Source: Methanobacteriota archaeon
Lineage (GTDB): Archaea > Halobacteriota > Bog-38 > Methanoflorentales > Methanoflorentaceae
Assembly: GCA_963719035.1 (NCBI GenBank)
Contig: CAVRAO010000008.1
Coordinates: forward strand, 256,001 to 320,000
Length of the DNA: 64,000 nt
Direction: 5' to 3'
Below are positions 5,550 to 14,033 of this stretch, piece after piece. Each line of letters starts with the position of its first letter. The first letter of the stretch is position 1. The notes under the pieces are model-generated. The model did no database searches. It saw only the letters and a list, made by a program, of their open reading frames with translations, and had not been told where the DNA came from. The translations under genes were made by a program, and so were the position numbers.

Positions 5550-5620
5550 GCGGTAGTGGTGTAGAGGCAGCACAAAGGCTTCCCAAGCCTTTAACCCGGG
5601 TTCGAGTCCCGGCTACCGCA
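5550..5620 (+). tRNA. tRNA-Gly(CCC)
   Basis: GCGGTAG/CTACCGC acceptor; AAGGC-TTCCCAA-GCCTT anticodon arm; GGTTCGAGTCC T-arm. Confidence 0.95.
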
Positions 5621-5795
5621 CTGTCTAAGCTAAGAACATAAAGTCGTTCCTACGTTACTTAGGTGCGCACTTTTGCAACAGCAGAGATATGTTGCTGTAG
5701 TTCTGTCAAAAAGGGCCTTATACAAATCGACGGGTCATCAAAAACGAGGAAAAATGAAGGGACTGCCTCAGTCAAAAGCGAAATAAGTGACGGAT

Positions 5796-6011
5796 TTAGC
5801 GTCTGTTTACTCGTTCAGTTGCGAGCTTTATATCATTCCCTAAGACCGTCTTTCGATCTGCGTACTTCGTAAGCTCAACGGCTTCTTTGGCAACGGCTGC
5901 ACCAAAGTCTTCCGCCCTCTCTGCCATTATTTTTACCGCCGTGCGATTAGCTCGTTCAGCTCCAGCAACCTTCATAATGCGCAAAACGACTGCCAGTGGT
6001 ATCTCTGCCAT
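5796..6011 (-). CDS. Archaeal histone (HMf family), divergent variant
   Basis: RIMKVAGAER and RKTV...DIKLA histone-fold motifs; 71 aa; GGAGAG RBS. Confidence 0.9.
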   Translation of the reverse strand: MAEIPLAVVLRIMKVAGAERANRTAVKIMAERAEDFGAAVAKEAVELTKYADRKTVLGNDIKLATERVNRR

Positions 6012-6355: not shown

Positions 6356-7864
6356 ATGTTAAAAATAGACGGCTTAAATGCGCTTACGTATGGGATACTT
6401 GACGCTGGCGTCGGAGTTGCTACAGGAGTTATAGGGTATCCTGTCACTGAAATCATCGACAATTTAAAACCTATTTGGATATTCACAGCTAATGAAAAGG
6501 TAGCGCTCGATTTGGCGTTAGGAGCCTCAGCATCAGGCACTTCATCTGTTTTTATAGCCAAACACGTTGGATTAAACGTGGCAGCAGACTCTTTGGTCAC
6601 AGCAGCAACCCACGGCGTTGGTGCCGGGCTGGTCATAATCGCAGGAGACGACCCCGGCGCTAAATTATCGCAAAATGAGCAGGATTCTAGATACTACGGA
6701 AAGTTAGCGGAGATCCCAGTATTCGAGCCACATAGCGCCAGAAATGCGTATGATTGTGCTTTATGGGCTTTTAAACTATCTGAACAACTCTCAGTGCCAG
6801 TAATAATGAGGGTGACAAGCAGGCTCTTGAACGTGGAGGGTTATGTTGAGCGCGTACCCGTTGAGTCGCTTCCCGTTGTAAGAATAGGAAAAGGCGTCTG
6901 GGACCTTACACTTTTAGGAAGGCATCAAAACCTTCTTAAAAACAAATATCCCAAGATGCTCGAGTTTGCTGAGACAACAGAACTAAATGAAGAAAACGGC
7001 ACAGGCGTTATCGGAATTATTTCCACGGGCTTTGCATCTACTGTGGTCGATGATGCAATCGACAGACGAAGTGATTTTGCGCACCTAAAACTTGGAATAG
7101 TCAACCCGTTATGTCAGCGGCGAGTTGATTCATTTCTAAAAGATCACGACCGCGTGCTAGTCATTGAAGAAGGTGCACCGCTCGTCGAGGAGTCGATCCG
7201 CGGTAAAGTCCTCGGCAAGCTCTCAGGACATCTGCCACGCTTTGGAGAACTCACGCTAGATGACGTCAATCGAGCGTTGAATTACGTTGATGCTGATTGC
7301 ATCTCCACACAATTTGACGTCGAAACACTCGAGAGCAGACACTACAAAGCAGAGATCTGTGAAGACTGCCCCTTTTTGCCGTTCTATCACGCTCTTGCCA
7401 AAGTCGACGAGATGATTGCCGGAGATCTGGGCTGTATCATAAGGTCGGCAAGTCCGCCATTAAACGTTATCGACGTGGCTTATTCTCTCGGCTCAGCAAT
7501 TGGAGTGGCTTCTGGATTTGAACATGGTGGCATAGCAGTGTTAGGAGATTTCGCGTTCTTACACAGTGGCGTTGTCGCGTTAATAAGCGCGCTAGTCTTT
7601 AAGCGCAGCGTCAAGGTATTTGTGCTCGAAAATCGAATTTCAGCTATAACAGGGGGACAGCAAACACCTGTGGTCTCCGACTTGGTCGGCGCACTATGTA
7701 GAAACTACGGAGCCAGCTATAAAATAGTGAATGCAATAGAGATGGGCGAAAAATCGTTCGAGGACCTCCTGCGAGCAACGAAGAACTCTACAGGAGCCCT
7801 AGTTGTCGTTGTCAGGGCCTCATGCCCCAAATACAGCAAGCCTCCTCGAAATGCCGAAGCTTAG
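6356..7864 (+). CDS. IorA-like ThDP-dependent 2-oxoacid enzyme lacking the C-terminal ferredoxin domain
   Basis: NEKVA, KHVGLNVAAD, GDDPG..SQNEQDSR, CEDCP, GDLGC, GDFAFLHSG, ENRISAITGGQ. Confidence 0.85.
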   Translation: MLKIDGLNALTYGILDAGVGVATGVIGYPVTEIIDNLKPIWIFTANEKVALDLALGASASGTSSVFIAKHVGLNVAADSLVTAATHGVGAGLVIIAGDDPGAKLSQNEQDSRYYGKLAEIPVFEPHSARNAYDCALWAFKLSEQLSVPVIMRVTSRLLNVEGYVERVPVESLPVVRIGKGVWDLTLLGRHQNLLKNKYPKMLEFAETTELNEENGTGVIGIISTGFASTVVDDAIDRRSDFAHLKLGIVNPLCQRRVDSFLKDHDRVLVIEEGAPLVEESIRGKVLGKLSGHLPRFGELTLDDVNRALNYVDADCISTQFDVETLESRHYKAEICEDCPFLPFYHALAKVDEMIAGDLGCIIRSASPPLNVIDVAYSLGSAIGVASGFEHGGIAVLGDFAFLHSGVVALISALVFKRSVKVFVLENRISAITGGQQTPVVSDLVGALCRNYGASYKIVNAIEMGEKSFEDLLRATKNSTGALVVVVRASCPKYSKPPRNAEA

Positions 7865-9022
7865 TCAGGTGTACATCACACCTCGAACGATGTCCTCGAG
7901 CTCCTCCTGAGAGACCGATTTCTTTGTTTCACAAACGCGTTTTACATCGTCAAGAATTTGGCACAGCTCAGCGCGGGTCGGTCTATAGCCTAGCTGTGCG
8001 ATCACGTACTGGAGTGCTTTTTTTCCTGTATGCTTGCCGATGACGATTCGTCTCTTGTTGCCTACTAAGTCAGGTGAGAACAGTTCGTACGTCTCTGGCT
8101 CCTCTAGCACTGCAGCAACGTGTATACCCGACTCGTGTGAAAACGCATTCAAACCTACTACCGGCTTATTTTTCGGCAGGCGAAAGCGTGAGTGATATTC
8201 GACTATTTTCGACAAATCCATCAGTTTTGTGAGGTCGTACGAGTCAACGCCAAACTGGACACGCAGCGCCACAAGCAACTCCTCGAGCGGAGTGTTTCCA
8301 ACTCGCTCCCCTATTCCGTTGACAGTTGTGTGCAACTGAAACACCCCAGCTTCTGCTGCGGTGATAGTGTTGGCGACAGCCATGCCGAGGTCGTTGTGAC
8401 AATGAATACAAAACGGTATATCGACGACCTTTTTCATTTCAGTTACTAGGTCGTAGCACGATGCCGGCCTGAGGGCGCCAACCGTGTCTGCGATGCTGAC
8501 GTAGTCGGCCCCGTGGTCTTCACCCTGTTTAAAAAAACGCTTAAGTACCTCTGGATTGGTTCTAGTCGCGTCTTCTGCCGCAAATCGCACTATTAAGCCA
8601 TGTTCTTTTGCATACTCTAGCGTCGAAAGGGCACACTCCAACATCTCATCAAATGTGCGATGATACTTGTGTTTGAGATGCAGAGCGGAAGTGGCCATGA
8701 AAAGCCCCACAACGTCCACATCGCAGTCCAACGCTTCATCTATGTCGTGAAAAATCGCTCTCGAAAGACAGCATACCTTAGTGTTTAACCCCAAATTCGC
8801 AATTTTTTTTACCATCGCCTTTTCTTTTGAAGAAACTGCGGGAAATCCAGCTTCGATGATCTCGACCCCAATCGAGTCCAGCTTCGTGGCGATCTCAACT
8901 TTTTCTTCCATACCAAAAACGACGCCAGGCGCTTGTTCGCCGTCACGCAGTGTAACGTCACAAATTTCAATGTTGTGAATACCAGTTCTCGGCAATGTAA
9001 AAGGCGATTCAAAGTTACCCAT
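7865..9022 (-). CDS. aksA: Homocitrate synthase family (AksA-type)
   Basis: DVTLRDGEQAPG, HCHNDLG, GIGERVGN, HESGIH; no LeuA/CimA regulatory domain. Confidence 0.8.
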   Translation of the reverse strand: MGNFESPFTLPRTGIHNIEICDVTLRDGEQAPGVVFGMEEKVEIATKLDSIGVEIIEAGFPAVSSKEKAMVKKIANLGLNTKVCCLSRAIFHDIDEALDCDVDVVGLFMATSALHLKHKYHRTFDEMLECALSTLEYAKEHGLIVRFAAEDATRTNPEVLKRFFKQGEDHGADYVSIADTVGALRPASCYDLVTEMKKVVDIPFCIHCHNDLGMAVANTITAAEAGVFQLHTTVNGIGERVGNTPLEELLVALRVQFGVDSYDLTKLMDLSKIVEYHSRFRLPKNKPVVGLNAFSHESGIHVAAVLEEPETYELFSPDLVGNKRRIVIGKHTGKKALQYVIAQLGYRPTRAELCQILDDVKRVCETKKSVSQEELEDIVRGVMYT

Positions 9023-9213
9023 AGTCAACCTGAATGACTTCGATAAGCACACTCACAGTCTGCACTTAAATAGATTACTTGCCCGACTTGTGGAGTTTGG
9101 AGGCTTGAGTTAACGTCAAGATCAGCTTATTATGCACAAACCAAGCGGGCATAGTTTAGAAGATCCATAAATTGATAATATCGAGAGCGGCAAATAGTAC
9201 TGGTGAATAAATC

Positions 9214-10467
9214 TTGGATACTCAAAGAACTATTAGCGAGAAGATACTGTCTAACGCTTCGGGAAAACCAGCGAGAGCTAATGACTTTGTTTTAGCGCAG
9301 GTTCACGCAGCAATGGCTCACGATGGTACCAGCGTACTCGGAGTGCGAGCATTTGAAGCGATGGGCGCGGATTCTGTTTGGGACCCAAATAAGATCGCTA
9401 TAGTCTTTGATCATATTGCCCCGGCCAGCACGGAGGCAGCAGCAACCCTTCAGCATACGATCCGCGCGTGGACAAAACGTCAGGAAATTACTCACTTCTT
9501 CGATGTTGGCGAGGGAATATGCCATCAGCTCATGGTCGAGCACGGCCTTGCCCTGCCAGGCACCGTAGTCGTTGGGGCGGATTCACACTCGTGCACGTAC
9601 GGAGCTCTGGGAGCCTTCGCGACAGGCGTCGGTGCAACAGACATTGCCGAGGTTTTTGCAACGGGAACGTTGTGGTTCAAAGTGCCTGAAACGCTCAAGA
9701 TTGTCATTAATGGAAAACTCCGCGCTTATGTTGGCGCAAAAGATGTCATTCTCAAAATCGCAGGAATGATTGGTGCCGACGGTGCGTCGTATAAAGCACT
9801 CGAGTTCTACGGTTCGACGATCGCTGACATATCGATGGACGGGCGGCTCTCAATTAGCAACATGGCAATCGAAGTTGGGGCGAAAGTGGGAATCATCCCG
9901 CCAGATCGAAAAACCATTGAGTACCTCGACCGAATTCAACCTCCTTTGAGTTTTACGCCGTGCTATGCTGATGAGGGCGCTGCTTACACAGATGAGCTCT
10001 ACTTTACAATTGATGATTTGGGACCTCAGGTCGCGTGTCCTCACGAAGTGGATAACGTGAAAGACGTAGAAGATGTAGCGGGAACGCCGATCGACCAGGT
10101 CTTCATCGGTTCGTGTACGAACGGACGTTTTGAAGATCTAAAAGAGGGCGCAACCATACTACGCGGCGAGACGGTCGCCGTGCGAACGATCATCGTTCCA
10201 GCGTCGAAGCACGTTTTGCTAACTTGCATACGGACTGGTGTCTTAGAGACATTGATCGAAGCTGGTGCCACTATTTGTAGTCCAGGATGTGGACCGTGTC
10301 TCGGTGCGCAAAACGGCGTTTTGGGACACGGAGAAGCTTGTCTCTCAACTTCCAACAGAAACTTCAAGGGCAGAATGGGTGTAGATGGGCTAATCTACCT
10401 TGCGTCCCCGGCAACAGCCGCAGCAACAGCACTCGCGGGCGAAATCGCTGACCCACGACAGCGCTAG
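9214..10467 (+). CDS. aksD: Homoaconitase/3-isopropylmalate dehydratase large subunit
   Basis: [38 protein letters not shown]. Confidence 0.8.
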
Positions 10468-10501: not shown

Positions 10502-10837
10502 TTAAATGCTGGAAGATCTCTTGATCTCCTCAATCTGTTCAATCAAGATCTTTTCAATGGCGTCTAGCAAATACTCGAGCGAGGGACTTCTGACTGTGAA
10601 TTTTCTAGGGATTCCTTTGTAGGTCACGGTGTCGCCTGCGTCAATTGAAATCATTGGTTCTCGGACGACGAGATCTGCTTTGAACTCGCTTGCGGCGATT
10701 TTTTCAATTTGGAGGTCCCACATTTTTTCATCAATTTCTTGTTCGATTTCTTGCGCCAGATGCTTCGCCATGTGAGTCAAAAACGCAATTTTTTGATTAA
10801 CTAGGTATTCTTCTTGTAAGGACAACGCCACTGACAT
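10502..10837 (-). CDS. Hypothetical protein
   Basis: ~111 aa ORF filling the gap between the large and small subunit genes; start uncertain. Confidence 0.5.
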   Translation of the reverse strand: MSVALSLQEEYLVNQKIAFLTHMAKHLAQEIEQEIDEKMWDLQIEKIAASEFKADLVVREPMISIDAGDTVTYKGIPRKFTVRSPSLEYLLDAIEKILIEQIEEIKRSSSI

Positions 10838-10956
10838 AATCCTGCATTGTTTCGGAACTATTAAACACTTCTTCAGTCTTTTAGCGCTCATACAGATATG
10901 TTCGCCCCCCACAATCCCCGCATACTTTATATCGCTACGTTTTCAATTAGTCTATA

Positions 10957-11463
10957 ATGCTCATTAGGGGAAACGTGTGGAAATACGGTGACAATGTTAA
11001 CACTGATCTGATAATACCTGGCAAATATTTGAGAACAACTAACATCAGCGTTTTCGCAGCGCACGCAATGGAGGGGATTGACAGAAATTTTTCACCCCGT
11101 GCTGGAGACATAATAGTTGCCGGCAAGAACTTTGGCTGTGGATCATCCCGAGAGCAAGCGGTTCTCGCGCTGAAACACGCTAAGATCGGATGCGTCGTTG
11201 CGATATCATTCGGTCGAATCTTTTTCAGAAATGCAATCAATATAGGTCTGCCAATAGTCGAAGCTAACGTCGTTGATTTTGTCCACAAGGGAGATGAGAT
11301 TGAAGTCGATTTTTCCGCAGGGCTTGTGAAAACGCGCAATAAGGTCGTTCAAGGTTCGAAGCTTCCTAGATTCTTACAGGAAATCCTCGAAGAGGGGGGC
11401 CTAGTTGAATATAGACAGAGACATCCGCGTGGCCCCAGCCTGGAGGAATCTGATGTTTCGTAG
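10957..11463 (+). CDS. aksE: Homoaconitase small subunit
   Basis: [37 protein letters not shown]; YLRT loop typical of methanogen homoaconitase. Confidence 0.82.
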
Positions 11464-11502: not shown

Positions 11503-12456
11503 ATGAAAATCGCCGTTGCTCAAGGAGATGGAGTTGGGAAGGAGATCATACCGCCGTGTATCGAGATTCTAAATCTGCTGTTAAAGGGCCCAAAATTCAT
11601 TGATTTGGATATAGGTTACTCCAAATGGGTAAGAGAAGGCGCGCCTATAACCGATTTAGACATTGATTTGATCAAACAAACTGATTGTATGCTTTTAGGT
11701 GCAGTAACCACTGCTCCCGGGAGCAGCGTCGTCGTCCGACTAAGAAGAACATTTGATCTTTTTGCTAATCTTCGGCCTTTTCGATCGTACGATTTAACCC
11801 CTCATAAATTGAACATGACAATAATCAGAGAAAACCTTGAAGGATTATATGCAGGCATAGAAGAAGTTTCAGTTGATATTGCAGTCACTAAACGTGTGAT
11901 TACTCGCTATAATACGGAAAGACTCGCTTCCTTCGCTAGCGCGTTACAGAACGTAAAAAAAATTACAATAGTTCACAAAGCAAACGTACTTAAATCAGAT
12001 GTCCTCTTTCGAGATGTCTGCGCGCATGTGTTAGATGAGCGCCGCATCTCTTACGATGAAATGTACGTTGATACCGCGGCATACAATCTAATTAAACACC
12101 CAGAGATTTTTGACCACATCCTGACATCGAATTTGTTCGGTGATATCTTGTCAGATGAGGCTGCTGGACTTACAGGCGGCCTCGGACTTTGTCCAAGCGC
12201 TAACATCGGGCCTGACTATGCAATTTTTGAGCCAATACACGGATCTGCACCTAACATTGCTGGGCGTGGCATAGCAAATCCAATCGGGGCAATACTAAGT
12301 GTTAAAATGCTTCTTGAGTGGGCCGGTGAACAAAGTAAAGCTATCCTGCTAGACAACGCAGTCAAGAAGACTATAGAAAAAGGCGTAATGACCCCTGATC
12401 TTGGCGGTATGAACTCGACAAAAGAAGTGACGCGATCGATAATAAGTTGTCTCTGA
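11503..12456 (+). CDS. aksF: Homoisocitrate/isopropylmalate dehydrogenase family
   Basis: GDGVGKE, IRENLEGLY, HKANV, NLFGDILSD, FEPIHGSAP. Confidence 0.78.
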   Translation: MKIAVAQGDGVGKEIIPPCIEILNLLLKGPKFIDLDIGYSKWVREGAPITDLDIDLIKQTDCMLLGAVTTAPGSSVVVRLRRTFDLFANLRPFRSYDLTPHKLNMTIIRENLEGLYAGIEEVSVDIAVTKRVITRYNTERLASFASALQNVKKITIVHKANVLKSDVLFRDVCAHVLDERRISYDEMYVDTAAYNLIKHPEIFDHILTSNLFGDILSDEAAGLTGGLGLCPSANIGPDYAIFEPIHGSAPNIAGRGIANPIGAILSVKMLLEWAGEQSKAILLDNAVKKTIEKGVMTPDLGGMNSTKEVTRSIISCL

Positions 12457-12463
12457 TGATCAA

Positions 12464-13318
12464 ATGATTTTTCCTGAACACTGTATGTATGTTGCAGTCA
12501 GAGACTGCGACGATAAGACAACACGACCATCGGCCGGTGAAGCTATCTATTTCTCTTCTCGCTATATCGTGTTATTTTGGCAAGGACAGGCTGCAATCTA
12601 CGAAGTCAATTCAAATGGAGACGGACTACTACGATCCATCTCGGTTGTCAACGAGATTGCAGGCTTTGCCGAGACTTTTGTGTACGAACAGAAAGTCGAC
12701 ATCTTCAACAGAAGCAGGTTAATTACAGAAGCAAAGCGTTTGTGCAAGCCACCAATAAAAGCTGTAATCTTTCAAGGATTTGATCTTCATTGGACGTTTG
12801 TCTACGATCCGGACTTGAACAGCGTCATAGAGATCGAGGTTTTTGACATCACCCCCCCAGACCCACCCTATCTCGTCACGCTTATCAAGAAACTTGAAGA
12901 TGCAGGCATTTTTGGGGACCTGTCCGTTCAGTTCAAGCCGATCGTACAAGATCTTAGAAGACTTAATGCAGGTACTATATTCCCTTGTTCAGCGTCAGGC
13001 ATTGGATCGAGCCATCTCAACAGGCCCGGAGTTCAAATTGAGGAGGATTCGGTGCTTGTGGGATGTGACATTTCAAGACAAGTACTCGAAGCGCGATTTC
13101 CAGCGTCAAACTTCGAACACGAGAATATATGTCCAACAAAAACCATCAGGCCGCGCAAGCCTTTTATCGCAAAATGTTGCAGGTCAGCAAGAGTTGGACC
13201 TATTGAACTGTTTGGCATACAAGGATACATCGTTCATTGGGGGGCAAACCCGTACGAAGTCGTCTCTGCTATTAGGGATCTCATAACGCGATATACTGAC
13301 GGAGTCAAGCAGGAGTAG
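12464..13318 (+). CDS. Cys-rich hypothetical protein, probably co-transcribed with aksEF
   Basis: 284 aa, 7 nt after the aksF stop; FPCS, GCDIS, NICP, CCRS, VHWGA motifs. Confidence 0.75.
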   Translation: MIFPEHCMYVAVRDCDDKTTRPSAGEAIYFSSRYIVLFWQGQAAIYEVNSNGDGLLRSISVVNEIAGFAETFVYEQKVDIFNRSRLITEAKRLCKPPIKAVIFQGFDLHWTFVYDPDLNSVIEIEVFDITPPDPPYLVTLIKKLEDAGIFGDLSVQFKPIVQDLRRLNAGTIFPCSASGIGSSHLNRPGVQIEEDSVLVGCDISRQVLEARFPASNFEHENICPTKTIRPRKPFIAKCCRSARVGPIELFGIQGYIVHWGANPYEVVSAIRDLITRYTDGVKQE

Positions 13319-13341: not shown

Positions 13342-13442
13342 TGCGGAGGGAGGGATTCGAACCCACGAATGCCTTCGCAACAGGATGTCTCAAACAACAG
13401 TTCTTAAGTCCTGCGCCTTTGACCTGGCTTGGCTACCTCCGC
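13342..13442 (-). tRNA. tRNA-Leu(TAA) with 16-nt intron at 37/38 (13387-13402)
   Basis: GCGGAGG/CCTCCGC acceptor; CAGGA-CTTAAG[intron]A-TCCTG; long variable arm. Confidence 0.93.
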
Positions 13443-13939
13443 TGTAAGTTGACTAATCCATAAACATATAAAAGCTTATTTTGGCAACTCGTTTTGCTGT
13501 GAGAGGTTGACCTGCTGAGAGCGTTTTCTAATACGCCCGTCCAAGAGCCTCTCTATCCAACGCAAAAACGCCGTCGAAAGTGACGTTCAACTGTCCTCCG
13601 GCTTTGTGATCCAGCTCTCGAACTGCTGCTCGCCACACCTGATAGTTCCATTTTCTATAGGGGCGTCGATCCACAATTCTAATAGCACGTGAAATAACAT
13701 AAATATGTGTTTGATACGGTTCAATCGGAAGCGTACTAGTTTAACCAGTTCCGTGCTTCCCGACCGTGAGCGAGGATTCGACAAATGATAGCGTCCACAT
13801 TGTGCGTGCCATTTGACGAAGTTCAATCATTCAGCTCTTTTGATGATGCTTCAAGGATCGTCCACCTATACATGTTTCAGGGTTAAAAAAGACGCACTAC
13901 GGATTATGACAGGCCGGATGTAACGACAAACTGATAGGA

Positions 13940-14033
<94 letters not shown>

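Follow-up and report, generated by a model that had tools for sequence, protein, structure and literature searches.

Methyl-coenzyme M reductase (MCR) takes its electrons from coenzyme B, and without this cofactor there is no biological methane formation and no anaerobic oxidation of methane or alkanes. To our knowledge, genes have been assigned to only the first half of its synthesis: those for AksA, AksD/E and AksF, which lead as far as 2-oxosuberate. Which enzyme takes the 2-oxosuberate onward? The question is posed by a locus in which the gene for a ThDP enzyme lies end to end with an aksA-like gene, within a 64,000-nucleotide stretch of archaeal DNA (the window, hereafter).

The step after the Aks enzymes is decarboxylation of 2-oxosuberate, with suberate semialdehyde as the intermediate, as set out in part of PMC3087415, section 14.5 of which gives homologues for three enzymes alone, the synthase, the isomerase and the dehydrogenase. 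A literature search found no paper that names the decarboxylase, the thiol-forming enzyme, the threonine ligase or the kinase of coenzyme B synthesis, although papers in subscription journals, or their supplements, may do so. It found nothing on DUF7714, PF24830, TIGR03280 or methanogenesis marker protein 11, with the same proviso for subscription-journal papers. A decarboxylase role for the ThDP protein described here is apparently unreported in print, allowing for prior work that subscription journals may hold.

The ThDP gene and its neighbors

The features of the window that matter are these:

6356 to 7864, plus strand: ThDP gene, ATG start, 502 aa; OFOR/IorA-derived, predicted candidate 2-oxosuberate decarboxylase
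7865 to 9052, minus strand: AksA-like homocitrate/2-oxoacid-elongation synthase (PF00682, 266 bits; PF22617), without a LeuA regulatory tail
9214 to 10467, plus strand: AksD/HacA-like homoaconitase large subunit (NF001614, 583.9 bits, above cut-off)
10502 to 10912, minus strand: small conserved ORF between aksD and aksE, function unassigned; about 111 aa in relatives
10957 to 11463, plus strand: AksE/HacB-like homoaconitase small subunit (TIGR02087, 205 bits, above cut-off)
11503 to 12456, plus strand: AksF-like homoisocitrate-type dehydrogenase (PF00180, 285 bits)
12464 to 13318, plus strand: DUF7714 protein (PF24830, 261 bits), starting 8 nt past aksF

The Aks identities draw on context and on NCBIfam scores below threshold, and are best regarded as probable. 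The AksA-like protein, one of four HMGL-type synthases in the genome, has NCBIfam matches at the subfamily level only; the AksD-like protein, one of three paralogous large subunits, scores 505.9 against HacA_Meth, under the cut-off of 550; and the AksF-like protein scores 314 against AksF2_Meth and 303 against AksF_Meth, both under cut-off, its LeuB-type paralogue on contig C6 passing NF002898. The loop of the AksE-like protein reads GKYLRTT, versus GKYLVLN in its LeuD-like paralogue, and YLRT we take to be the mark of a homoaconitase. The small ORF is 60–89% identical across five loci of family f1; it has no Pfam or NCBIfam match, and it was not seen in genome G031, where aksD and aksE overlap.

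An earlier note on this DNA had pointed out that the stop of the ThDP gene, at 7864, directly abuts that of aksA, at 7865, and the coordinates agree. The two genes are convergent, and so share no transcript in the window; taken alone, their abutment is weak evidence. The tail-to-tail pairing does recur—in family f1, in G031 (family f9) and in L036—with protein identity of about 40% at the G031 and L036 junctions.

The DUF7714 protein matches the XcbA family model (NF052538, CoM_XcbA_fam) at 73.8 bits (E 1.4e-20), under the cut-off of 150, and has five Cys that are invariant in 11/11 rows. XcbA, a [2Fe-2S] enzyme from Xanthobacter autotrophicus, forms coenzyme M by reducing sulfoethanethioaldehyde, as described in part of PMC9457059. 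The likeness lies in the model match and the invariant Cys; the difference, apart from the low score, lies in the setting, for in the operon form of the locus DUF7714 sits between aksE and aksF and belongs to no coenzyme M cluster. It is a distant member of the XcbA family, and a candidate for the reductase that converts a thioaldehyde to 7-mercaptoheptanoate.

The ThDP protein itself comprises domains I (PYR), II and VI (PP, with the four Cys of the proximal [4Fe-4S] site); domains III (CoA), IV and V (ferredoxin) are absent from its 502 aa. The catalytic residues listed in the earlier note are all present, as the ORF, its translation and the alignments agree. Catalytic Glu is E47, within NEK (residues 46–48): it is invariant in 11/11 rows of alignment A2, and occurs in 67/68 rows of alignment A4, the exception (P0132) having a gap at that column. 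The ThDP-Mg motif, G397-D398…N426, and the cluster Cys, C335 and C338 (CEDCP), C360 (GDLGC) and C490 (SCP), are invariant in alignments A2 and A3, and these Cys align with those of the canonical IorA of the same genome. All four are found in the 10 context-defined members of A3 (10/10) and in 51 of 58 rows of the wider clade, minimal forms of 375–445 aa included. The note had also remarked that the usual substrate loop, YPGTP, reads VIGYP here. This holds in an ungapped alignment, but as a peculiarity of the window protein it shrinks to the V-I, since the consensus of the ThDP family is VPGYP.

Linkage and distribution

The company that ThDP genes keep was surveyed in a phylum sample of 301 genomes, linkage being defined as a distance of no more than 8 kb from DUF7714 or 5 kb from mmp11. 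Six genomes were excluded from the family count because their sole matches resemble canonical forms or a different short type: G049, G059 and G256 (frames of 604–653 aa, 254–260 bits), and G050, G187 and G221 (493–512 aa, 282–287 bits). What remains is a family present in 121/301 genomes, all of them in families with DUF7714 and mcrA. The ThDP gene is linked to one marker or the other in 118 of these 121—to DUF7714 in 68, to mmp11 in 103, to both in 53—although related genomes are not independent, and the linkage should be counted as about a dozen families, not as 118 events.

In this sample, the ThDP family is confined to families in which every genome searched has DUF7714. Among the 129 DUF7714-positive genomes, mcrA was found in 126; and besides the genome of the window (G000), 120 of the other 128, from 12 families, have a ThDP member. 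A further 53 genomes are mcrA-positive without DUF7714, including those of f10 (35/42 mcrA-positive), f7, f11, f17 and f28, and none of the 53 has a ThDP family member. The family is therefore not universal among MCR-bearing archaea. The DUF7714 profile finds no match in M. jannaschii. As a marker of coenzyme B synthesis mmp11 is unclean, because it also scores above its threshold in families where mcrA matches are few or absent (f4, 16/50 versus 6/50 for mcrA; f30).

In five other families, at six of six loci (one each in f3, f14, f23 and f24, and two in f12), mmp11, a radical SAM gene, the ThDP gene, aksA, aksD and aksE lie on one strand. The full order is mmp11-paralog, mmp11, radical SAM, ThDP, aksA, aksD, aksE, DUF7714, aksF, with variations in G035 and G280, and with the mmp11-paralog missing from its position in one locus. 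In this operon form the ThDP gene is directly upstream of aksA, and DUF7714 stands between aksE and aksF. The radical SAM gene that adjoins the ThDP gene in all six is LipS2/BioB-like, and the IorA-like protein is the sole ThDP enzyme in these clusters. Triplets of AksE, DUF7714 and AksF occur at 3/3 loci examined in f2 and f20. Coupled with the separate clade described below, the six-locus operon, the 118/121 linkage and the confinement to families with mcrA and DUF7714 bear out the status of candidate 2-oxosuberate decarboxylase that the earlier note proposed. A search of RNA sequencing runs gave small shares only, 0.05–0.06, in two metatranscriptomes, from which we conclude nothing about expression.

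A candidate role in coenzyme B synthesis

Linkage and phyletic pattern together show a connection between the ThDP family and the coenzyme B pathway. Our preferred reading is that the ThDP protein is the decarboxylase that converts 2-oxosuberate to 7-oxoheptanoate in that pathway, to which we attach a probability of roughly 0.6. What the enzyme acts on, that the outcome is non-oxidative, and what the neighbors do, we infer as follows. An enzyme of the OFOR (IorA) lineage would have kept its PYR and PP domains and its proximal [4Fe-4S] site, and lost its CoA partner and its two-cluster ferredoxin domain. It would act right after the chain-elongation cycle of AksA, AksD–AksE and AksF, binding 2-oxosuberate and decarboxylating it on ThDP to 7-oxoheptanoate (suberate semialdehyde), with no net oxidation. 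Thiolation of 7-oxoheptanoate would come next, after which XcbA-like DUF7714 might produce 7-mercaptoheptanoate by reducing the thiolated compound. For the joining of threonine, its phosphorylation, or both, the candidates would be the methanogenesis marker 11 proteins, which are TiaS-like.

The analogy we propose is with ComDE, where non-oxidative decarboxylation of a 2-oxoacid on ThDP likewise yields an aldehyde on the way to a methanogenic thiol cofactor (described in part of PMC3087415), although ComDE comes from another ThDP lineage and has no Fe-S site. A fused ComDE sulfopyruvate decarboxylase is encoded in this same genome (C2:424257-425354), and so the ThDP protein is not needed for coenzyme M; sulfopyruvate decarboxylation for that cofactor was set aside on this account.

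If the protein does decarboxylate 2-oxosuberate, an OFOR scaffold has been converted to a CoA-independent role. Its gene is a concrete, clonable candidate for the decarboxylase, and the conserved neighboring genes are a shortlist for the steps that remain. An old question about coenzyme B is thereby brought within reach of experiment, and methane mitigation gains new, specific targets. More speculatively, five genes—for the ThDP/[4Fe-4S] protein, DUF7714, methanogenesis marker 11, its paralogue and the LipS2/BioB-like radical SAM protein—might make up the whole unassigned second half of coenzyme B synthesis in the DUF7714-bearing MCR lineages, with the ThDP protein decarboxylating 2-oxosuberate and its cluster wired to the sulfur insertion and thioaldehyde reduction that follow, and not to ferredoxin. 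The OFOR scaffold would then have found a new use; we think this possible, with the odds somewhat against it.

Modeling points to the same scaffold. An AlphaFold2 model of the ThDP protein (pLDDT 93.9) superposes, by VIA-align, on OGOR 6n2n_A with Z 32.2 and rmsd 2.7 Å over 302 aligned residues, and on the single-chain PFOR 1b0p_A with Z 29.7 and rmsd 3.8 Å over 490. Z lies between 29 and 32 across OGOR 6n2n, StOFOR 5b46, M. acetivorans PFOR 9bt4, D. africanus PFOR 1b0p and oxalate oxidoreductase 5c4i, and 485–492 of the 502 residues fit domains I, II and VI of single-chain PFOR. The predicted fold is thus the OFOR arrangement of these three domains, in a protein that shares only 15–20% sequence identity with the solved OFORs, and that is without their domains III, IV and V. 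Profile A3 run against PDB sequences gave five short matches, none of them an OFOR chain and all of them oxalyl-CoA decarboxylase or 2-hydroxyacyl-CoA lyase (E 2e-5 to 2e-4). By E-value, Foldseek also placed ALS and HACL first, but with an rmsd of about 21 Å, and since VIA-align put OFORs first this likeness is probably one of domain order only. A complex predicted between the ThDP protein and Mmp11 scored 0.01, which we take as no verdict either way.

The [4Fe-4S] site is awkward for the preferred reading, since a plain non-oxidative decarboxylase would need no cluster and yet most of the clade keeps all four Cys. Might the protein be a 2-oxoacid:acceptor oxidoreductase instead, one without a CoA domain, whose substrate in coenzyme B synthesis is still 2-oxosuberate? 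Two electrons would leave via the [4Fe-4S] cluster for free ferredoxin or for DUF7714 as an iron-sulfur protein, and the acyl-ThDP would be resolved by water or another nucleophile, to give pimelate or a pimeloyl thioester. The constancy of the Cys in the context-defined members, the OFOR-type fold, which extends to the CoA-independent oxalate oxidoreductase, and the existence of OFORs that lack a ferredoxin domain—StOFOR 5b46 is, we believe, an example—all agree with such an enzyme. We nevertheless consider it unlikely. In the sole family member of Methanimicrococcus hongohii the cluster ligands are gone, yet DUF7714 is still present, and the Methanolapillus member is likewise without ligands; these losses suggest that electron transfer may be dispensable for the family's job. 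An acyl-level product would, by chemical inference, need four extra electrons to reach the thiol, and the intermediate given in the consulted part of PMC3087415 is the semialdehyde. Domain III is missing from the protein, and the genome holds no spare gamma domain to replace it. For this last reason, and because no bioF or bioB was found as a user of pimeloyl-CoA (E<=1e-10, in a genome 91% complete), the alternative once raised for this gene, that with a partner encoded in trans it makes pimeloyl-CoA, gains no support; pimeloyl-CoA for biotin was set aside on the bioF and bioB result.

We are equally doubtful of a second alternative, in which the MCR-linked set serves some other step: a shorter 2-oxodiacid, a carboligation on ThDP, or a coenzyme M-type route with the XcbA-like protein. 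The only characterized relative of DUF7714 does serve coenzyme M synthesis, mmp11 occurs in some genomes that have no mcrA match, and the radical SAM neighbor at the six loci is foreign to the textbook route, such that the real chemistry may differ from it. A fused ComDE is present, however, and the operon form, with the ThDP gene immediately before aksA and DUF7714 inside the aks series, argues against this alternative, as do the AksE-DUF7714-AksF triplets.

Relationship to IorA

Is the ThDP protein simply an IorA that has mislaid its tail? TIGR03336 (IOR_alpha) is the best-scoring named family, but at 318.9 bits the match falls below half of the equivalog cut-off, 650.9 bits. It covers model positions 7–536 of 595, and the Cys-rich C-terminal extension of the canonical paralogue is absent from the ThDP protein (P0001), in keeping with the earlier observation that there is no 2x[4Fe-4S] tail; positions 537–595 of the model are matched by other Fer4 proteins that the genome encodes. 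A missing ferredoxin domain is not diagnostic, because IorA homologues have often lost it: a CxxCxxCxxxCP motif is wanting in many rows of 500–600 aa.

At G000:C2:228036-230427 this genome has a canonical iorA with iorB adjacent; this iorA encodes 609 aa and scores 761.5 bits, and its product is 32% identical to the ThDP protein over 527 aligned positions. The two have in common the order PYR-domain II-PP, the catalytic Glu, the ThDP-Mg motif and the four proximal-cluster Cys; they differ in that IorA has a 2x[4Fe-4S] C-terminus and an adjacent iorB, whereas the ThDP protein has neither, and its gene is linked to aks, DUF7714 and mmp11 instead. The gamma/CoA domain (PF01558) has four matches in the genome, at three loci, each beside its own OFOR. 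All are on contig C2 and none on C8, the contig of the window, which was correctly described as having no IorB. A search of the genome for iorB, suggested at the time, finds one next to canonical iorA and none near the ThDP gene; nor is iorB present at any related ThDP-family locus examined. The epithet ‘orphan’ is apt, then, for the gene, which has no iorB beside it, but not for the genome, where the canonical pair resides on C2.

Phylogeny separates the two as well. An IQ-TREE quick tree of 74 rows divides 30 family rows from 44 others, the IorA of G000 among the latter, with SH-aLRT 99; and in a FastTree of 151 rows the branch between the ThDP family and canonical IorA has a support of 99. 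The protein does not group with ordinary IorA, and belongs to a distinct clade. Whether such short forms would prove methanogen-specific had been asked of the phylogeny, and strictly they are not: the wider clade includes a Halorutilales archaeon and members from Bacillota.

That the protein oxidizes aryl-pyruvates with free ferredoxin and an IorB borrowed from the canonical pair would suit its top-scoring family, its intact catalytic and cluster residues and the presence of iorAB in the genome. We regard this as very improbable, given the low score and identity, the separate clade, the conserved linkage to aks, DUF7714 and mmp11 at loci without iorB, the deletion of domain II in orthologues from five families, and the state of the would-be lender, for in this assembly the canonical iorB is broken into two ORFs. 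Least credible of all is a non-catalytic scaffold or decaying paralogue, a reading with nothing in its favor except that two domains have been lost: members are present in almost all DUF7714-positive genomes, and the 10 aligned members, though only 32–44% identical, share 43 invariant columns, catalytic Glu and ThDP-Mg motif included.

An IorA-like protein cut down to its core

Window 6356–7864, + strand: ThDP gene, IorA-like; ATG start, 502 aa

The source genome (G000; 2.19 Mb assembled, 91% complete) is that of an MCR-bearing archaeon. Its mcrA scores 990 bits, above cut-off; it encodes a fused ComDE; and on contig C2 its YcaO and TfuA McrA-thioamidation genes are grouped with Mmp11. The ThDP protein matches the Pfam domains POR_N and TPP_enzyme_C, both weakly, and no model of NCBIfam release 20.0 scores above cut-off. 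The top family is IOR_alpha (TIGR03336), at 318.9 bits versus a curated cut-off of 650.9, in a match that ends at model position 536 of 595. Precisely the remainder, 537–595, is matched by the genome's other Fer4 proteins, and so represents the ferredoxin module.

The earlier note had called the protein an orphan with no IorB in the window. This holds for the window (G000:C8:256001-320000) and for its whole contig, where PF01558 (the gamma/CoA domain) has no match, but not for the genome: contig C2 carries a canonical 609-aa iorA (761.5 bits) adjoined by iorB. Judged by sequence, therefore, the ThDP protein is a diverged paralogue of this canonical IorA, to which it is 32% identical over 527 aligned positions. 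PF01558 matches four times in the genome, at three loci, all on C2 and each adjoining its own OFOR (2-oxoacid:ferredoxin oxidoreductase); two of the four are the halves of iorB, which is split into two overlapping ORFs with one TAG inside the match (G000:C2:228036-228546). A LeuA-type synthase is likewise split, into ORFs of 143 aa and 379 aa (C2:192170-193667). These splits are frameshifts or assembly errors.

An alignment that includes relatives and the canonical IorA bears out the residues picked out from the sequence alone: the catalytic Glu (E47, in NEK), the ThDP motif (G397-D398…N426), the proximal-cluster Cys at 335 and 338 (CEDCP), 360 (GDLGC) and 490 (SCP), and VIGYP in place of the YPGTP of IorA. 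The consensus of the ThDP family is VPGYP.

An AlphaFold2 model (68-row alignment, pLDDT 93.9) finds OFORs as its top VIA-align matches: OGOR (6n2n_A, Z 32.2), StOFOR (5b46_A, Z 31.2), the PFOR of M. acetivorans (9bt4_A, Z 31.1) and oxalate oxidoreductase (5c4i_D, Z 30.8). Single-chain PFORs accommodate the whole chain (1b0p_A, Z 29.7, 490 residues aligned; 7plm_A, 485 aligned). Since all of it superposes in this way, the modeled protein is OFOR domains I, II and VI, without III, IV and V. Orthologues from five other families have lost domain II as well (375–445 aa) and still retain every catalytic and cluster residue.

Among 1.84 billion representatives, the top homologue is 64% identical (741 bits); below it come a group at 330–370 bits (478–530 aa), a single row at 281 bits, and a long tail at 191–261 bits. 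The phylogeny that the earlier note had proposed yields a distinct clade. In a FastTree of 151 rows (14 of 165, outside the range 350–700 aa, being left out), a branch with support 99 sets every one of the 14 context-defined members, along with 17 representatives, apart from the rest. The split recurs, 30 rows versus 44, at SH-aLRT 99 in an IQ-TREE quick tree (LG+C20 PMSF, 74 chosen rows), with a 26-row core at 97. The ferredoxin-less form, which the earlier note had pointed out, is real in this protein but does not define the clade, because many 500–600-aa IorA homologues outside it are also without the CxxCxxCxxxCP motif. The cluster Cys are gone from the outer members, found in a Halorutilales archaeon, Paenibacillus polymyxa and Mechercharimyces (P0139, P0154, P0219 and P0227). 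Methanimicrococcus hongohii has just one family member, of 544 aa, in which C-x2-S replaces C-x2-C and the fourth Cys is absent; the Methanolapillus member resembles it.

Neighbors in the window and beyond

Features near the ThDP gene (window coordinates)
5550–5621, +: tRNA-Gly(CCC)
5796–6011, −: archaeal histone, 71 aa (PF00808)
10502–10912, −: small ORF, flanked by aksD and aksE of the other strand
12464–13318, +: DUF7714 protein (PF24830, 261 bits), starting 8 nt after aksF
13342–13442, −: tRNA-Glu(UUC), 97 nt, long enough for an intron
13937–14033, −: further tRNA match (Rfam, 47.7 bits; no ARAGORN call)

The small ORF (~111 aa) is kept in family f1 at 60–89% identity, and has no match in Pfam or NCBIfam. 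The aks-like genes themselves, of the type that encodes chain elongation up to 2-oxosuberate, have paralogues: large and small aconitase-type subunits come in three sets in this genome, which also holds three IPMDH-type dehydrogenases and four HMGL-type synthases. The set on contig C6 is Leu-type, its dehydrogenase scoring above the 3-isopropylmalate dehydrogenase cut-off. The methanogen models for homoaconitase and homoisocitrate dehydrogenase give the window set its best scores, though below cut-off, and the small-subunit loop of this set reads GKYLRTT versus GKYLVLN in the Leu-type paralogue; YLRT we take to be a homoaconitase mark. The third set (C2:74919-79465; a 456-aa HMGL-type synthase, an IPMDH-type dehydrogenase, and small and large aconitase-type subunits) is closer to the aconitase and isocitrate dehydrogenase models, and may serve a Re-citrate-synthase-type route to 2-oxoglutarate.

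The ThDP and aksA-like genes are convergent and abut stop to stop at 7864/7865, as first noticed. The entire neighborhood is syntenic in both genera of f1, and synteny outside such close kin is more telling. G031, a genome of f9 (40% identity), shares the tail-to-tail junction, followed by a tight aksD-aksE-aksF-DUF7714 operon; locus L036 has the junction, too. In all six loci examined from f3, f12 (two), f24, f23 and f14, the genes form a co-directional run: mmp11-paralog, mmp11, a LipS2/BioB/LipA-like radical SAM gene, ThDP gene, aksA, aksD, aksE, DUF7714, aksF. The exceptions are G035, where no mmp11-paralog was found beside mmp11, and G280, where the opposite strand carries both DUF7714 and the paralog. 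Families f2 and f20 have aksE-DUF7714-aksF triplets in all three loci examined. An mmp11 homologue precedes the ThDP gene in the Methanoperedens-type loci L035, L037 and L038 and in G024, G034 and G113, with an overlap of 1 to 22 nt, which in four of these six loci is 4 nt.

Mmp11 contains a TiaS kinase-type (TCKD) domain and is a candidate for a threonine-joining or phosphorylating step. In the source genome its gene (C2:273705-274610, −; TIGR03280, 326 bits) adjoins hycI-like, TfuA and YcaO genes instead of the ThDP gene; further mmp11 loci are L031, L032, L035, L037, L038 and L120. The diverged paralogue, at 189 bits in G245, the only one scanned, accompanies the cluster in five of the six operon-type loci; in four of these it lies upstream and is co-directional. 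The radical SAM gene, which separates mmp11 from the ThDP gene in all six (L115, L116, L121–L124), has a counterpart at C6:89262-90278 of the source genome; we know of no place for it in the textbook coenzyme B route. In operon-type families ftr (formyltransferase) adjoins the mmp11-to-aksF cluster, which lies ~11–18 kb from mcrA in a by-eye comparison of some genomes.

Examples of mmp11-to-aksF clusters near mcrA
G245:C1:2533735-2553765
G079:C1:551252-571024
G025:C1:470700-495087

A candidate 2-oxosuberate decarboxylase

Section 14.5 of PMC3087415 takes the coenzyme B pathway from 2-oxoglutarate to 2-oxosuberate, and on to suberate semialdehyde. The ThDP protein is the sole ThDP enzyme of these clusters, encoded directly upstream of aksA in the operon form. 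From the pathway order, this uniqueness and this position, we assign it the decarboxylation of 2-oxosuberate, and put at roughly 60% the probability that it yields 7-oxoheptanoate for coenzyme B. 2-Oxosuberate would be decarboxylated on ThDP and 7-oxoheptanoate released; thiolation would come next, and then an XcbA-like reduction by DUF7714. XcbA of Xanthobacter is described as a [2Fe-2S] enzyme that forms coenzyme M by reducing sulfoethanethioaldehyde (PMC9457059). DUF7714 matches the XcbA family model, though at 73.8 bits it falls under the cut-off of 150; with five Cys invariant in all 11 aligned members, it is a candidate for the reductase that forms 7-mercaptoheptanoate.

The alternative product once considered, pimeloyl-CoA, finds no support here: biotin genes able to use it were not found in the 91%-complete source genome, and no CoA domain is available, the gamma domains all being beside their own OFORs. 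Both points favor non-oxidative decarboxylation, as do the absent ferredoxin module and M. hongohii, which still encodes DUF7714 although its only ThDP-family protein is short of cluster Cys (the Methanolapillus member is similar). Counting against the non-oxidative outcome, 51 of 58 clade rows retain all four Cys; the role of the cluster may be structural, or it may feed electrons to the thiol-forming step.

Our literature search, with subscription journals and supplements outside it, found no report on 2-oxosuberate decarboxylase, DUF7714 or marker 11 and, judged by title or abstract, nothing on the late coenzyme B steps. Mmp11 is a ‘hypoth_equivalog’ in NCBIfam, and the window neighbor is a DUF in Pfam. 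Through the ThDP protein, a long-standing gap in the biosynthesis of methanogen cofactors is now directly testable.

Distribution among MCR-bearing lineages

Genomes with a match, in one evenly drawn sample of 301 from the phylum (at least 80% complete)
mcrA: 179
mmp11: 151
DUF7714: 129
ThDP-family profile A3 (E ≤ 1e-75): 127

Six of the 127 A3-positive genomes were dropped, having only canonical-looking or other short forms (254–287 bits). The remaining 121 score at least 381 bits, or have two-piece matches for domain-II-less forms, and all belong to families in which every genome searched has DUF7714: f1, f2, f3, f9, f12, f14, f20, f22, f23, f24, f29 and f33. DUF7714 itself is confined, within the sample, to 13 mcrA-bearing families, where no genome searched is without it; 126 of its 129 genomes have mcrA, and eight have no ThDP-family match (f2 and f23, one each; f12, f14 and f27, two each). 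By match coordinates, the ThDP-family gene is within 8 kb of DUF7714 in 68 of the 121, within 5 kb of mmp11 in 103, near one or the other in 118 and near both in 53; the three exceptions (G014, G254, G097) are assemblies of 70 to 310 contigs. Because related genomes are not independent, this evidence should be counted as about a dozen families.

Fifty-three mcrA-positive genomes of the sample have neither DUF7714 nor a ThDP-family member; they include those of f10 (35 of 42 genomes mcrA-positive), and others from f7, f11, f17 and f28. The DUF7714 search likewise found a match in M. acetivorans, and none in M. jannaschii. If our assignment is true, other MCR lineages use a different enzyme. The ‘methanogenesis marker’ label of mmp11 may not be strict, either: mmp11 scores above cut-off in 16 of 50 genomes of f4, where mcrA is found in 6, and in the single genome of f30, where mcrA is not.
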